DNA of 24,604 nucleotides from a virus (lineage: Duplodnaviria; Caudoviricetes): IMG/VR virus record IMGVR_UViG_3300021959_006711, positions 1 to 24,604 of that record; one strand, written 5' to 3'. Each line of letters opens with the position of its first letter. Positions within the stretch are counted from its first letter, which is position 1. The notes under the pieces were generated by a model. It had not been told where the DNA came from. It saw only the letters and a program-made list of their open reading frames with translations, and did not search any database. The translations under genes and the position numbers were made by a program. Of the stretch, positions 5,071 through 13,352 are shown piece by piece.

Positions 5071-5934
5071 ATGTCTGACATTGTTAAAGTAGGATCAAGA
5101 CAATCGCCTTTGGCTGTCATTCAGGCAGAACACGCCATTTCAAAAATAGATTACCCTGCAGAATTGATCACCATGTTGGCAGAAGCCGATCTGGATCTTT
5201 CAAGACCTGTGCATGAAATGGGAGGTAAAGGCATGTTCTGCACCAAGTTGGAACAGGCATTGTTATCAAACAGAATTGATTGTGCTGTACACAGTGCCAA
5301 AGATTGTGCCACTCAGGAAACTGCGGGCACCGATTTATTGGGAGTGATCTACACAGGTGATTCTAGAGATTGTGTTATTGGAGATTATTCTTTGCATGAT
5401 TTACCAGCAGGATCAAGAATAGGAACATCAGCACCCAGAAGAACAGAAGCCATAAAAATCATTCGACCTGATTGCACAGTGTTGCCTATCAGAGGCAACA
5501 TCAACACCAGACTGAACAAATGGAAAGCAGGTGAAGTGGATGCACTTGTTTTGGGACAGAGTGTGATAGACAGAATGAAACTGAATGTGCCTCATCACAC
5601 CGTGGATCAAGATGTTATTCTGCCAGCCGCGGGAGCAGGCAAAGTTGTAATACAAATACGATCCAATGATTCCACAGCCAAAGCAACTTGGTATCCTGCT
5701 GTGGATTTTTCTGCCACTCAGGAGTTATGGATCGAGCGAGGAGTGTTGCGAGCAATTGATGGTGATTGTCACACTGCTGTGGGACTCAAGGCTAGCGTGG
5801 ACACTCACAACGATGATTTACAATTGGAAGCAATGAGTGTGCAAAACGATCAATTAAAATTTTTTAAACTGCAAGGAGCATTATCAGATGCACCAGCCAT
5901 GATGGAAGAAATGAGTATCAAAATACTGGCTTGA
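5071..5934 (+). CDS. hemC: Porphobilinogen deaminase (hydroxymethylbilane synthase)
   Basis: GSRQSPLA, GGKGMF, DCAVHSAKD, IGTSAPRR, IRGNINTRL, LPAAGAG and ERGVLRAIDGDCHTAVG (Cys for the dipyrromethane cofactor). Confidence 0.95.
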   Translation: MSDIVKVGSRQSPLAVIQAEHAISKIDYPAELITMLAEADLDLSRPVHEMGGKGMFCTKLEQALLSNRIDCAVHSAKDCATQETAGTDLLGVIYTGDSRDCVIGDYSLHDLPAGSRIGTSAPRRTEAIKIIRPDCTVLPIRGNINTRLNKWKAGEVDALVLGQSVIDRMKLNVPHHTVDQDVILPAAGAGKVVIQIRSNDSTAKATWYPAVDFSATQELWIERGVLRAIDGDCHTAVGLKASVDTHNDDLQLEAMSVQNDQLKFFKLQGALSDAPAMMEEMSIKILA

Positions 5935-5959
5935 CATTCAAGTAAATACACTGTAATAT
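5931..5959 (+). promoter_or_regulatory. sigma70-type promoter upstream of the riboswitch
   Basis: TTGACA 5931-5936 (overlaps the hemC stop), 17 bp, TAATAT 5954-5959. TAAATA motifs also at 5943-5948 and 5992-5997. Confidence 0.6.
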
Positions 5960-6003
5960 AATATTATGTGTTTGTTGCATACCTGATATGCTAAATACAT
6001 ATA

Positions 6004-6046
6004 CGTTCAGGCATCAAGCCCGGAAGTAGGTTATACCGAAGGAACG
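6004..6046 (+). ncRNA. Glutamine riboswitch (glnA RNA motif, glutamine-I class)
   Basis: CGTTC-A-GGC(ATCAA)GCC-CGGAAGTA-GGT(TAT)ACC-GAAG-GAACG: P1 CGUUC/GAACG, P2, conserved GGAAGUA...GAAG E-loop and P3, in the 5' UTR of a small ORF. Confidence 0.85.
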
Positions 6047-6075
6047 CACCTAACACTAACACTGGAGGGTGAAAC

Positions 6076-6270
6076 ATGACAAGACACTCATTTATGCTCA
6101 AGCAGTATGCTGAGCAACAATCACGCAAACGCAAGGAAGGCGTGTTGATGAAAGCAAGACGTGAAGTCGGCATCAACGATAACGGCACTTCAGGCTACGT
6201 GATAAAAAATGGTGCTAACAAGGACAAGATCCTAGCACACAAATCTACCAAATCTACCAACAACTGGTAA
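6076..6270 (+). CDS. Riboswitch-controlled 64-aa basic peptide, similar to glutamine synthetase inactivating factor IF7/IF17
   Basis: RBS GGAGGG at 6064-6069. RKEGVLMKARREVG aligns without gaps to IF7 RQQSMLSRAAAEIG (recalled from memory). Confidence 0.65.
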   Translation: MTRHSFMLKQYAEQQSRKRKEGVLMKARREVGINDNGTSGYVIKNGANKDKILAHKSTKSTNNW

Positions 6271-6293
6271 TATTGGTTGTTCAACAGCATTGA

Positions 6294-6319
6294 TTATTGG
6301 GGGCTAAAACCCCCAATAA
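6294..6319 (+). terminator. Perfect 10-bp hairpin after the peptide gene; likely terminator or 3' stabiliser
   Basis: TTATTGGGGG-CTAAAA-CCCCCAATAA; lacks a clear U-tract on the + strand. Confidence 0.6.
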
Positions 6320-6454
6320 ATGCAGTGTTAACACGTCATATCTGCCCATACACGGGCCTTTAACACAAAATGCACTCACAGTACTCATAGCATATTACTG
6401 GACCAAATATAAGATAAATATTGGTCTTAACAACTCAACAAAGGGAGATAGGCT

Positions 6455-6574
6455 ATGAAGGCAATACTAACCAAAATCACATCCGTGATTGAAAAAATTA
6501 AATCGTTTTTTGTCGGAATGTACAACAGATTGGAAAAATTTGTTGACAGAATCGTCAGCGGTTTAAAACACTAA
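6455..6574 (+). CDS. 39-aa amphipathic peptide MKAILTKITSVIEKIKSFFVGMYNRLEKFVDRIVSGLKH
   Basis: Not in the ORF track. RBS AAGGGAG, and TAAATA at 6415-6420 upstream. Confidence 0.65.
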   Translation: MKAILTKITSVIEKIKSFFVGMYNRLEKFVDRIVSGLKH

Positions 6575-6584
6575 TCTACAGCAA

Positions 6585-7226
6585 CTAAAACTCAATCCAA
6601 GTATTGATGATGTACTTGGCACTGCTTCGGGGCGGATTGCCTCGGTGCAGGTGAGTGTAGTTGCCAGGATAAATCAACAAGGTTCCTTGCACTGCTGGTT
6701 CTAGACGCGAGTAGTATAAAAATTCTGTACCACCGCCCTGCTCCACAGTGTTGAGGAACAGTTGAACATTCAACAGTCTACTGCTGTTTTGGCGACCTTC
6801 CTGTTCCCAGTGCCACACATGATATCCTGAACCCACATCTGTCTTTTGTATTTTAAGTTCATTGATGGACAATGGTGACTGTGTGCGTAAGGATGAAAAT
6901 TTTTCTGAATATATTTCGAAATACTGCCATGCACGTTGTAAAAAATAATCCTGTATCATGGGCACCCCTATAAGGTTCATATCCATCACGCCCGAAGTGA
7001 CCAAACGTGTGGTGTTGACATTTATAGTGTCCTGTATGTGTGCCAGTGATCCATTCAATTGCTGTCTGCTGAAACCAAAACCCATCTGGTCCATCTTTTC
7101 AAAATAGTTAATGGCTTTTTGGCACCACTCCGGTTCGAATGCATTTTCAAATTTGCCCACAAAATTGTCCAACGAGACTTTAAGGTTTTGCGGTAGCGGT
7201 AGATTTTCTTTTGTGTTTTCAGACAT
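6585..7226 (-). CDS. 2OG-Fe(II) oxygenase (prolyl-hydroxylase-like, marine myovirus type)
   Basis: KIQKT..GSGYHVWHWE, RLL..QLFLN, GGGTEFLY, GTLLIYP..YTHLHRGNPP, KYIINTW. Confidence 0.88.
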   Translation of the reverse strand: MSENTKENLPLPQNLKVSLDNFVGKFENAFEPEWCQKAINYFEKMDQMGFGFSRQQLNGSLAHIQDTINVNTTRLVTSGVMDMNLIGVPMIQDYFLQRAWQYFEIYSEKFSSLRTQSPLSINELKIQKTDVGSGYHVWHWEQEGRQNSSRLLNVQLFLNTVEQGGGTEFLYYSRLEPAVQGTLLIYPGNYTHLHRGNPPRSSAKYIINTWIEF

Positions 7227-7349: not shown

Positions 7350-8810
7350 CTACTGATCGTTATCATCCAAGTTGGTTAAAAATTCTCTCAACTTGGTTGA
7401 ATCTGTTTTGGGCTGTATTCTTCCTATGCTGTCACCTTTTGTAGGGTCTGGCGGAGTTATTGGTTTTCCTGCTTCTACACGGTTGTCTGTGTTTTCGGGT
7501 GTAACTTTTGATCCTTGTTTGATAGATTGGAATATTGTGCTCTTGCGTTTGTCAAATTCCTGGTACTCGGAATCATCTGCAAGATCTCTTATTCTTAAAC
7601 TATCTAAATCAAATTCTAAATCAATTTTCATTCCTACTCCACTAGATGATCTTGTTTTCATAAGTTGTATTTGATATCTTCCACGTTCTCTCATTGCTCT
7701 AGATGTGAATATACCAAACACATTATCAGCAGTTTGTATTTTACTTAATCCTCCTGATATGTGCGAATGATCAAACTCTATTTCTTCAACAGCACCTCTG
7801 TTTAATTGTGCGGCTGTGACAAACACTGTGTTCAATTCCATTGCTAGATTACGCAGTTCCTCAGATACAAATTTGTCTTTGATAAACAAATCACTTGGAG
7901 AAACTTTTCTACTGTTGGGCATCATAAGATCCAAATAATCTACAAGCAATACATCAACCTTACTGTTTGTTTTTATTTCATATTCTTTGATATATGATCT
8001 GATATCGTTTGCGTTTTTACCACTTGGCATGTATTTGATCTGAAACTTTCCTGCTTTTTTACCAATCATTTTAACTTTCATCTCTACACCATCTAAGTCT
8101 TTAAAAATCTCTTTAGTAGGAATATCAGTTAGCATTGAATCTATTCTCATACTGACCAATGGTTCACTTAATTCGAATGTTAGATAAACCACATTCAAAC
8201 CTTCTAATGCCCAATTGCAACCTAAGTTAGCAAGGAATAAACTTTTACCTGCACCAGATCCGCCTGCAAAAATATTCAATTCTCCTTTGTTGAATCCACC
8301 AAATAATCTTTTGTCTAAACTTTCCCAGCCTGTTTTTACTTGACCATTTTGATCTTTTAATCCTAGCAGTCTACCTTTAGGATCTTCGAAGTAATCTGTT
8401 CCTATGTCTTTGTGTAATCCAATCTGTACAGCGTCTTTGACCAACACTTCAACAGGACCATATTCACCTTTTTCTAACATGTCTGCTGATTTTAGTATTG
8501 CTCTTTCTAAACTTTTGTGTCTAATAAATGTTTCAAAATCATCTAACAACCAATCAAAGTGTTGTTCGTTTAGTCCTGTGGGAATTTCTAAGTCTGATTT
8601 ACAACTAGAATTTACAATGTCTTGTGTAGGAAGTGCATTGTGTTTAGTCACATATTCATTTACGAATTGTGCGGCATCTTGTAATCTTCTATCAAACAAT
8701 GTGTGATCAAATATAGACTGACAACGCACAAATGTTTCTGCATTGCTCAACATCATTTCAAGATATACTTTTTGTATATCGTATCCGTATTCTTTGTTTT
8801 GTTTAGACAT
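7350..8810 (-). CDS. dnaB: Replicative DNA helicase, DnaB/T4 gp41-like (SF4)
   Basis: Walker A GGSGAGKS, TFELSE, Walker B VDYLDLM, AAQLNR, TADNVFGI, MKTRSS. Start moved to MSKQNKEY (8810). Confidence 0.93.
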   Translation of the reverse strand: MSKQNKEYGYDIQKVYLEMMLSNAETFVRCQSIFDHTLFDRRLQDAAQFVNEYVTKHNALPTQDIVNSSCKSDLEIPTGLNEQHFDWLLDDFETFIRHKSLERAILKSADMLEKGEYGPVEVLVKDAVQIGLHKDIGTDYFEDPKGRLLGLKDQNGQVKTGWESLDKRLFGGFNKGELNIFAGGSGAGKSLFLANLGCNWALEGLNVVYLTFELSEPLVSMRIDSMLTDIPTKEIFKDLDGVEMKVKMIGKKAGKFQIKYMPSGKNANDIRSYIKEYEIKTNSKVDVLLVDYLDLMMPNSRKVSPSDLFIKDKFVSEELRNLAMELNTVFVTAAQLNRGAVEEIEFDHSHISGGLSKIQTADNVFGIFTSRAMRERGRYQIQLMKTRSSSGVGMKIDLEFDLDSLRIRDLADDSEYQEFDKRKSTIFQSIKQGSKVTPENTDNRVEAGKPITPPDPTKGDSIGRIQPKTDSTKLREFLTNLDDNDQ

Positions 8811-9801
8811 TGTTGTTATTATACCACATTTTGTCAGAGTTGTCAATGTGCTTGTTGTATTTGGCACACACAGCACCTATGCATGACCCAGGATCTCCTG
8901 GATTCTTTGGCACCCATATATCATCCCAAACTGATTCTAATTTGGTTCTAGCAGTTCTATTCAACGCACAACCTCCTACTAGAATAATGTTCTGTGTTGG
9001 TATGTTCATTTGTACCCAAGAACTGGCACACATCAAAGTTTGTTCAAAAATGTGTTGGGTTGTTGCCGCCAAGTCTGCCAAATCTTGTTCAGAATTTAAT
9101 TCTGGTCTCCACCAATTACAACCTCTGTGTAAATTTTCTCTTGTTTTAAAAGGCATTCTGGTTTTAATAATTTCTTCCATCATTATTCTATGATATTTTC
9201 TCCAGTTGCCCTTTTGTGCTAACTGTTCTAGTTTGTATTCTTCTGCGTTGGCTTTGAATCCACATCTTTGAGTCATTGCTGAATAAAATAAACCAATACT
9301 GTGTGGATATCGTTGACTGTATTTCTTTTCCAGTTTATCACCATGACCATGCCATATTGTGTACGTTTCAAACTCACCAATTGAATCTAGCACAATCACT
9401 GCGGCATTTTTGTAAGGAGATGAATAATATCCATAAGCCGCATGACTGTGATGATGATCCATATATTCTATAGGCACGTGTATACCTTGTCTTTGTAAAA
9501 ACTTCTTAACATTGTTTTCTTTAAATGTCCAACCTTGTCCTGCTGTCAATTGACGCACTGATTTTTTGAAAGGCTTTTCATACCAAATAATTTTTGCCGG
9601 GTGAGCCCATCTGGCATTGGATCTCACATGGGCCAGCATTTCTGGACATAGATTTGGATCACCAGGTACTCCACTAAAGTCTGAACTCTTACCTGCCCAG
9701 TGTAGGTATAATCCGTATTTGTCTGTCAGACCTTTTACGTGATATTCCATGACTGCTAAACTGGCATCATGATTGTTTCCTGTTATTCCCCAAACTATCA
9801 T
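8803..9801 (-). CDS. Carbamoyltransferase (NodU/CmcH/TobZ family), Kae1-like N-terminal domain only
   Basis: NHDAS, HHHSHAAY, DSIGE, SIGLFYSAMT..GF....EEYK, LAATTQ, GGCALN, PGDPGSCIGA; ends at 332 aa. Confidence 0.88.
   Translation of the reverse strand: MIVWGITGNNHDASLAVMEYHVKGLTDKYGLYLHWAGKSSDFSGVPGDPNLCPEMLAHVRSNARWAHPAKIIWYEKPFKKSVRQLTAGQGWTFKENNVKKFLQRQGIHVPIEYMDHHHSHAAYGYYSSPYKNAAVIVLDSIGEFETYTIWHGHGDKLEKKYSQRYPHSIGLFYSAMTQRCGFKANAEEYKLEQLAQKGNWRKYHRIMMEEIIKTRMPFKTRENLHRGCNWWRPELNSEQDLADLAATTQHIFEQTLMCASSWVQMNIPTQNIILVGGCALNRTARTKLESVWDDIWVPKNPGDPGSCIGAVCAKYNKHIDNSDKMWYNNNNV
8818..8846 (-). promoter_or_regulatory. Consensus sigma70 promoter for the helicase (leaderless geometry)
   Basis: TTGACA-17 bp-TATAAT with TGn extension, inside the 3' end of the upstream gene; 7 nt from the -10 box to the ATG. 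Confidence 0.8.
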
Positions 9802-12328: not shown

Positions 12329-12895
12329 TTATTTTTTATCTTTTTGAATTTGTTCACAGATAAGATTCATGTGAACTACCACTGCTACTGCATATGAAAC
12401 TGCATGAGCTTTTTTAAAATAATAACCTTCAGATGGTTTAGTCCATACTTCATTCATTATGGTGTCCCAGTCTTTGGTTAGTAAATATCTTTTGCTTGGT
12501 CTTATTATTGCCAATACTGCCGCTAATTGTTTGATATTTTTTGGTTTTAGTGTTTTTAATATTTCGTTGTGTCCGTTTAAATGAAACACTTGATCGCTGA
12601 AATCTTTCGCTTCTAATAATTCCCACACAGGTTCGATATTCATTAAAGTCTCAAGATGTTTTTCGTCACGCACTTTGTCATAGATACTTACATTCAATAA
12701 ATCAATTTTAAAATATCCACGTTCCTCTGCTTGTTTATAATTGAGTGTACTCACATTGTCCAACGGGTTGTGGGGAACTTCTGTGAAGTACACACCAGTA
12801 TTGTGTTTTTTACCTGTGTCTAGTTTGGCAATTCTGTGCTTTAACTTTTCTAACAATATATTTCTGTCTGCAAAATCTATATCTATATCAAACAT
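12329..12895 (-). CDS. Miniature DNA polymerase III alpha (family C) catalytic-core-like protein
   Basis: FDIDIDF, KHNTGVY, GYFKIDLLNV, VFHL, LAAVLAIIRP and YYFKKAHAVSYA correspond in order to DnaE PDxDxDF, HAAGVV, GLxKxDFLGL, GVFQ, ALxRPG and YGFNKSHxxxYA. Confidence 0.85.
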   Translation of the reverse strand: MFDIDIDFADRNILLEKLKHRIAKLDTGKKHNTGVYFTEVPHNPLDNVSTLNYKQAEERGYFKIDLLNVSIYDKVRDEKHLETLMNIEPVWELLEAKDFSDQVFHLNGHNEILKTLKPKNIKQLAAVLAIIRPSKRYLLTKDWDTIMNEVWTKPSEGYYFKKAHAVSYAVAVVVHMNLICEQIQKDKK

Positions 12896-13352
12896 TTCTA
12901 ATCAGTCCTAATTTTTTTACTCTTCTTGTGTGTCTACCTTTTTCAAAATTGGTTTTAAAAAATGCTTCTATCATATGTTTTGCATGATCGAAATCTGTGT
13001 AGTCTGCACCAATACATAATACATTCATATCGTTGTGTTGTCTAGCCTGTTCCACATCAAAGACGTCAAAACACACTACCGCTCTTGCTTTTGAAAATCT
13101 GTTTGCCTGGATAGCCATACCAAAACCGCTCCCACATATCAAAATACCTTTATCAAATACACTCATATTTTCACCAACTTTGACAGCAATGTCATTGTAA
13201 TCAATTCTTTTTGGCTTGTATGTACCAGCATCTTGAAATACTGCAATGTCAAATTTACTATCACATTCTGAGTCAATCGGACACAACCATGTTGATATTT
13301 TTTCTTTTAATTCGAAACCTCTATGATCTGATCCTATTATTACATCACGCAT
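12888..13352 (-). CDS. rpiB: Ribose-5-phosphate isomerase B
   Basis: GSDHRG, DY, GILICGSGFGMAIQANR, ARQHNDMNVLCIG, FEKGRHTRRV. Confidence 0.93.
   Translation of the reverse strand: MRDVIIGSDHRGFELKEKISTWLCPIDSECDSKFDIAVFQDAGTYKPKRIDYNDIAVKVGENMSVFDKGILICGSGFGMAIQANRFSKARAVVCFDVFDVEQARQHNDMNVLCIGADYTDFDHAKHMIEAFFKTNFEKGRHTRRVKKLGLIRNV

Follow-up and report, generated by a model that had tools for sequence, protein, structure and literature searches.

A phage-borne glutamine riboswitch cassette encoding a small basic peptide of SAR11 with genomic links to glutamine synthetase

Organization of the cassette

The whole stretch of DNA that was analysed (the window) is a virus record of 24.6 kb, estimated to be 7% complete and hence a fragment of a jumbo phage; the nearest relatives of its helicase are found in PA5oct-like jumbo phages (51-52% identity). 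The cassette lies between hemC (5071-5934), which had no match in PHROG, and a 2OG-Fe(II) oxygenase gene on the opposite strand. On the plus strand, it includes a sigma-70-like promoter match (TTGACA-17-TAATAT, 5931-5959) whose -35 hexamer overlaps the hemC stop codon, a TAAATA promoter element (5992-5997) located 6 nt ahead of C1 of the aptamer, a predicted type-1 glutamine riboswitch aptamer of the glnA motif (6002-6050), an expression platform (6047-6071), the gene of a 64-aa basic peptide (P0001, 6076-6270), and a perfect 10-bp hairpin 3' of the stop codon (6294-6319, stem 6294-6303/6310-6319). A palindromic box of the GCA-N9-TGC type, TGCATA-NN-TGATATGC, occupies 5976-5991. Every cassette element that an earlier note on this DNA had named was located where it had been placed, and the idea of a self-contained cassette, which is also conserved, was supported. 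The description as a phage cassette holds in part: it is conserved in phages, but it is not phage-only, and the peptide is encoded by a near-core SAR11 gene.

The hairpin is stable (z -2.67), and equally stable folds were obtained in 2 of 200 shuffles. It has no U-tract, and a terminator scan of the window found no terminator; the hairpin is likely a transcript end or a stabiliser. An estuary metatranscriptome contig (X3) spans 6017-6188 without differences, and contigs of close relatives span parts of the aptamer or ORF in the RNA runs X1-X3; such contigs cannot show transcription, and the shares were small throughout the RNA runs.

Promoter elements and glutamine riboswitch

The sigma-70 promoter motif proposed earlier is present (TTGACA 5931-5936, 17 nt, TAATAT 5954-5959), but taken alone it is no better than chance: such 10/12 matches occur at 2 sites in the window versus 3.8 +/- 1.9 in shuffles. 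The TAAATA motif (5992-5997) is also where it had been reported. In 107 of 136 distinct viral loci it precedes the aptamer by 5-12 nt, the spacing being 6 nt, as in the window, in 54 of them. It is not enriched in the window (24 occurrences vs 52 in mononucleotide shuffles), so that its role is argued from position only. TAAATA may be a late promoter or a host -10 element, and its spacing suggests a likely start site at the 5' end of the aptamer.

The Rfam covariance search recovered the proposed glnA-motif aptamer as RF01739 at 6002-6050 (47.9 bits, E 8e-8; gathering score 35); the match spans the full model (1-53) and is the sole Rfam match in the window. The P1 stem is formed by 6004-6008/6042-6046, the junction includes G6022-G6023, and the linchpin is C6047. 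The junction CGGAAGUA, the P1 ends and the linchpin G23-C60 are all intact, with G6023 and C6047 present in the alignment; the equivalence of G6023/C6047 to G23-C60 is our own mapping from the Rfam alignment onto the description in PMC6212724. In agreement with the earlier note, the minimum-energy fold contains a helix between CACCT (6047-6051) and GGGTG (6067-6071). The latter lies within the Shine-Dalgarno (SD) sequence GGAGGGTG (6064-6071), and the linchpin C6047 is also the first base of the anti-SD CACCT.

Covariation of the platform was counted in 105 of 119 distinct platforms, after 14 without GTG were left out. The fourth anti-SD pair is C-G in 61, U-A in 35, U-G in 7 and A-G in 2. It is of the Watson-Crick type in 96 of 105 platforms, compared with 54.6 on average and at most 72 in shuffles, a comparison that gives no probability because the platform sequences are related. 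The compensatory C-G/U-A change indicates a platform over the RBS of the downstream ORF. Blocking of C6047 and G6023 in a 2D model opened the anti-SD helix only partly (as did blocking of C6047 alone); thus the switch would need tertiary energy beyond that model.

In the gifB leader of Synechocystis, C60 and the bases after it pair with the RBS, and glutamine is postulated to melt this helix; the gifB switch was reported as an ON switch driving IF17 (Klahn 2018, PMC6212724). The two leaders share the RF01739 aptamer, the linchpin C in an anti-RBS helix, the small basic ORF that follows, and the predicted ON logic; whereas gifB is cyanobacterial, and the present cassette belongs to a phage/SAR11 setting, with a peptide that has no DUF4278 or IF7A match and a putative inhibition of glutamine synthetase (GS). 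By this precedent, transcription would start just ahead of C6004, and without ligand CACCT would mask the SD. Glutamine would then lock P1 and the G6023-C6047 pair, the helix would open, and translation would proceed. The element is very probably a type-1 glutamine riboswitch with translational ON switching (high glutamine = ON), and the predicted order of events, in which high glutamine frees the SD and the peptide is made, is well supported by the anatomy and the gifB precedent.

Glutamine riboswitches in phages are already published, in Melnitz, Mosig and AG-345-P14 (PMC9004378). These are also marine phage-borne type-1 glutamine aptamers; however, the available text of that source ties them to ssrA and lysis timing and names no downstream peptide, whereas the aptamer of the window is positioned at the SD belonging to a defined small ORF. 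A blastn search of the leader against cultured phages returned only one chance match.

The peptide family and the comparison with IF7/IF17

The ORF at 6076-6270 encodes, as proposed, a 64-aa basic peptide (pI 10.4). Family members have 53-78 aa and pI values of 9.2-12.0 (81 rows), and this small size and basic charge are IF-like, which was counted for a GS regulator. The family core is NxNGTxGYxxKxG, i.e. G37-T38-x-x-Y41-x-x-K44-x-G46 in P0001; G37 and G46 are invariant, and T38, Y41 and K44 are nearly so. The family consensus contains no cysteines. The copy in the window has its full length and shares its core with the host copies. The monomer is predicted to be poorly ordered (pLDDT 66, pTM 0.34); its model has a confident N-terminal helix (residues 2-30) and low confidence beyond, and the low-confidence region after residue 30 holds the conserved core. 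P0001 matched PHROG 32989 (unknown function) with an E value of 7e-11, and had no match in Pfam (E 0.1) or NCBIfam and no usable match in the ESM Atlas. One candidate homologue, L007, was dropped as a chance match of 14 residues.

The earlier note had aligned a residue pattern of the ORF with IF7 residues that it gave as R21, L26, R28, A29, E32, I33 and G34. The pattern is truly in the ORF; but the likeness to IF7, which was tested through the IF7A profile of NCBIfam (NF052599) only, did not hold, with the profile cut-off of 70 bits not reached. Nor is the pattern a family signature, since the invariant core is the G37-T38-x-x-Y41-x-x-K44-x-G46 segment. Among 65 members, position 19 is K in 24, E in 22 and R in 11, position 32 is G in 7, and position 26 is K or R in 60. 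NF052599 gave no match to P0001, to any of the 65 diverse members or to any of the 150 distant members (the best 150 of 164 matches from a search of 1.84 billion proteins). It touched 1 of 36 close homologues (E 0.06), and gave 10 weak matches on 101 SAR11 genomes, none over the cut-off; in the five genomes with known coordinates of the peptide gene, none of the matches fell on it. DUF4278, the IF17 type, was also not found in P0001 by Pfam at E 0.1.

The IF7 protein was reported to require three arginines (PMC6316151, section 9). An equivalent set is not conserved among the 65 members (R3 in 58, R28 in 38, and R19 in 11), and its absence was counted, together with the lack of IF7A homology, against a GS inhibitor. 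By every profile test, the peptide is not a member of the IF7/IF17 family; it may nevertheless work like these factors. That it is a true but highly diverged IF7/IF17 homologue seems highly improbable: the single touch at E 0.06, the fairly conserved L24, basic 26 and V31, and the riboswitch and glnA arrangement as in the gif genes speak for such an origin, but the IF7A model matched none of the 65 and 150 members, and the GTxGYxxKxG core is the family's own signature.

Distribution in viruses

The close homologues of the window peptide number 37 (64-100% identity). Six close viral loci carry the same leader, five of them above the Rfam cut-off. At L001:2880-2975, P3 of the glutamine aptamer holds a long hairpin insertion, and the match lies below the Rfam gathering score. 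A wider scan confirmed 426 viral relatives. Among the best 80 of these, from which 6 were left out because of a missing start or short flank, there are 55 distinct leaders, and a regular expression found the aptamer in 42 of the 55 viral family loci. The aptamer-less viral copies include L308, L315, L319-L321, L326, L329, L330, L339, L341 and L346, and in several of these a remnant, CACCTAA, still precedes the SD.

Viral aptamer loci were also collected by a pattern scan, which yielded 119 of an estimated total of about 660. The ORF could be resolved in 110 of them, with at most 70 aa in 106 and a pI above 9 in 108. The family of the window peptide accounts for 32 of these ORFs, a family of 28-38 aa for 29, and a family of 47-51 aa for 18; the further groups include DUF4278-like ORFs (8, labelled by eye), ORFs of 32 aa (5), and smaller ones. 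The viral glutamine aptamers (L158-L276) thus front at least four other small basic peptide families.

Most matched records of cultured phages are Pelagibacter phages, in 16 of 17 with P0001 as the query and in 22 of 23 with a host copy. The copies in HTVC019P, HTVC011P, HTVC106P, Kolga and others belong to the same protein family (PHROG 32989, hypothetical genes); however, they have 53-58 aa and no riboswitch at the gathering score. RF01739 was found at that score in none of 10 cases (nine cultured-pelagiphage copies and HTVC008M). The riboswitch-free copies of cultured pelagiphages sit among late genes, and many riboswitch-free phage copies lack the C-terminal 10 residues. In HTVC008M (L015:1415-1587), the homologue is unannotated, and its start codon and the core are in different frames, which is a frameshift or a sequencing error in the record. 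In the close relative L003, a permuted alphaproteobacterial tmRNA and a porin-like gene (labelled by eye) adjoin the cassette (features at 995-1383 and 1441-2463). The Pelagibacter-phage matches, the host copies and this tmRNA point to SAR11 as the likely host of the window phage, consistent with the non-cyanobacterial host that had been considered earlier.

The riboswitch-free copies are difficult to reconcile with a GS inhibitor, because an unregulated inhibitor is hard to square with the nitrogen demand of a phage. Infection by HTVC022P and HTVC027P was reported to raise glnA, gltBD and amt transcripts (PMC12753301), and HTVC027P encodes a family homologue. The family might bind GlnA while the phage copy serves as a decoy or an activator by which the enzyme stays active in infected cells. 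The spread of riboswitch-free, often C-terminally shortened copies across unrelated pelagiphages and the rise of nitrogen genes would suit such a role, and a small GS activator, sP26, reportedly exists in Methanosarcina. On the other hand, an activator made only at high glutamine would be a positive feedback, and the window copy is full length with the host-like core, so we regard this role as quite unlikely.

Distribution in SAR11 and linkage with glnA

The family profile matched in 240 of 301 Pelagibacteraceae genomes, many of which are incomplete (the count includes one unpublished genome, G226), and the gene is single copy in all listed genomes but one. In 401 Alphaproteobacteria, the profile gave 2 matches, both from the SAR11 set; the non-SAR11 genomes of this sample contained no family member. 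Host loci were examined across the range of profile scores. In one clade, the peptide gene lies directly 3' of iscA on the same strand in all 15 loci, with gaps of about 10-20 nt in some. Twelve of these iscA-linked loci are tail-to-tail with a convergent glnA (ends about 0-15 nt apart); of the other three, one has an intervening gene, and in two glnA is not within the stretch examined.

The tail-to-tail arrangement is also that of glnA and gifA (IF7A) in Nostoc PCC 7120 (PMC11288750). In both cases a small basic gene converges on the 3' end of glnA and a regulator box lies at both promoters; however, the peptide families are different, and the SAR11 box is GCA-N9-TGC and not NtcA. Moreover, the Nostoc-like layout was seen here in one SAR11 clade and not in the phage.

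The glnA adjacency could also arise simply because the peptide gene closes the suf/iscA run, and Fe-S metabolism would then be indicated. The peptide might then be a basic nucleic-acid, ribosome or Fe-S-linked factor with an incidental position next to glnA. This possibility draws on the constant place directly behind iscA, with short gaps, and on a weak likeness to ribosomal bL20, which was the only return of a PDB sequence search (E 0.43 or worse) and was seen by profile in one family member (E 0.024). The bL20 match is non-significant and rests on basic-helix composition, though, and the consensus lacks cysteines; the glutamine control and the shared box would also be left unexplained. Such a factor is accordingly judged very unlikely.

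In a tree of 64 columns, which is weakly resolved, the glnA-adjacent host copies and the cultured pelagiphage copies form one clade (99/95), whereas the window peptide falls in the other main clade. The split suggests at least two captures by phages. It also means that the evidence from glnA adjacency comes from the sister clade of the window peptide, whose closest host copies do not adjoin glnA, and this was counted against the reading of the window peptide as a GS regulator.

The top-scoring host copies lie elsewhere, not by glnA, and most are behind a double-pseudoknot RNA. A few are behind RF01739 (L019, L020 and L043), and overall RF01739 was found in 1 of 121 host genomes. Located about 110 nt ahead of the host peptide gene, the double-pseudoknot RNA comprises two H-type pseudoknots in tandem, each with a short stem, a loop of 4-5 nt, an A-rich linker and a loop-pairing segment; an extra hairpin is present in one subgroup. 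It was seen at L021-L027, L030, L031, L036, L037, L044-L067, L073-L076, L079, L081 and L082. The second module covaries (CUAC/GUAG, UCGC/GCGA, CGAC/GUCG and GAUC/GAUC), with 4 of 4 pairs formed in 18 of 19 parsed variants. Rfam at E 10 gave no match over the motif in 5 loci, and the available part of Meyer 2009 (PMC2704228) contains no motif resembling it. Since this RNA takes the place of the glutamine aptamer, it is a candidate new nitrogen-sensing riboswitch.

GlnE was found in none of 151 SAR11 genomes, in a search whose control matched in 3 of 14. P. ubique was described as lacking GlnB, GlnD, GlnK and NtrBC, and the control of nitrogen assimilation in SAR11 without PII, GlnD and NtrBC was regarded as an open question (PMC3870248). 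Together these suggest that a post-translational GS brake is missing. No paper naming the host gene 'SAR11_0746' was found; the first 2 of 57 numeric matches in the supplement of PMC3870248 contained no row for it, and the available text of the mdRNA-Seq paper PMC5069720 does not describe the peptide family.

The palindromic box upstream of glnA and the peptide gene

The box TGCATACCTGATATGC (5976-5991) abuts TAAATA; its position in four or five phage loci, flanked by a -35-like hexamer on one side and TAAATA on the other, is repressor-like. With at most 3 mismatches, it recurs upstream of glnA in 5 of 8 SAR11 loci (two of the eight have an incomplete upstream stretch, and one of these two has the box just outside), as compared with 1 of 10 amt loci and 10 of 254 other SAR11 upstream regions. 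It is also upstream of some host copies of the peptide gene. Five of the other regions have at most 2 mismatches: three lie in an intergenic region that also borders the peptide gene, glnA or gltD, and the remaining two were picked by the pattern search itself. Because the pattern was derived from the window and the host peptide loci, only the glnA and amt counts are independent. Most of 20 followed-up box-like sites are in coding sequence, and a second box pattern was dropped because of its wrong spacing and looseness.

The box is likely, as a prediction from the sequence, a binding site of a nitrogen regulator. GCAn9TGC is a pattern for sites of the NtrX/NtrC family, and according to the same source NtrX in Rhodobacter has no nitrogen-gene role (PMC7240162). 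The latter point and the non-independence of the pattern count against a GS regulator.

The box also bears on whether the glutamine ON switch drives a peptide with another nitrogen node as its target. Like PirA, the peptide would divert surplus nitrogen, through glutamate synthase, Amt or arginine/polyamine flux, rather than stop assimilation. The box lies ahead of gltD, one amt, and a gene which we take from its sequence to be ornithine-decarboxylase-like; yet it was the pattern search that selected the sites at gltD and the decarboxylase gene. Family members are fused to the C-terminus of S-adenosylmethionine decarboxylase in P0045, P0080, P0085 and P0144, four of the distant homologues (the best 150 of 164 matches), and phages gain from polyamines; but such fusions are infrequent, and a lost stop codon or an assembly artefact may explain them. 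In addition, glnA is the only recurring nitrogen-tied gene neighbour. Another node is therefore considered possible but unlikely. A SpeD-like motif is also found within L281.

Proposed role of the peptide

Several independent genomic links between the peptide family and GS are supported. The riboswitch, the shared box and the glnA adjacency would also fit an IF-like rise in expression at nitrogen excess. The SAR11-restricted spread, the glnA adjacency, the shared box and the lack of GlnE were counted for a link to GS; whereas the raised nitrogen transcripts during infection, the iscA linkage, the rare host aptamer, the only partial opening of the anti-SD helix in the 2D model and the S-adenosylmethionine decarboxylase fusions were counted against it. 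By analogy with IF7/IF17 and from four genomic links, there is about an even chance that the peptide binds GlnA and lowers its activity. It would fold on the acidic surface of the dodecameric GlnA, and the dampened GS could leave more ATP and carbon skeletons to the virocell when glutamine is abundant. We place the same balanced confidence in the view that the peptide is a functional, non-homologous SAR11 analogue of the GS-inactivating factors IF7/IF17, which was captured by phages.

A broader scheme is possible, though somewhat doubtful as a whole. SAR11, without PII and GlnE, might control GS by an independently evolved inhibitor peptide whose gating differs among clades: a glutamine riboswitch in some, a box for a nitrogen regulator or a new riboswitch class with a double pseudoknot in others. 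Many unrelated pelagiphages might have captured this peptide, and might also place several other peptide families under glutamine switches, so as to adjust the nitrogen assimilation of the host during infection.

Peptide inhibition of GS was stated to be unique to cyanobacteria (PMC6212724). If the proposed role is true, it would have arisen on two occasions, each time with this riboswitch and this gene layout, and the phage glutamine riboswitches would gain a target. The peptide would be a so far unknown GS brake of SAR11 that was borrowed by its viruses, and these viruses would sense a host metabolite and tune a core nitrogen enzyme of the most abundant ocean bacteria. No paper that links phage glutamine riboswitches or SAR11 to the peptide was found in a search that covered mainly the openly available literature.

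Other features of the window

A further small ORF of 39 aa is located at 6455-6574 on the plus strand, with a good SD and a TAAATA at 6415, and its product looks amphipathic by eye. Near-identical contigs span about 6442-6682 in 3 of 4 RNA runs; being contigs, they cannot prove transcription. Besides the cassette, the window contains other phage-borne metabolic genes, including those of a porphobilinogen deaminase (hemC, 5071-5934), a carbamoyltransferase (8803-9801) and an RpiB-type isomerase (12888-13352).
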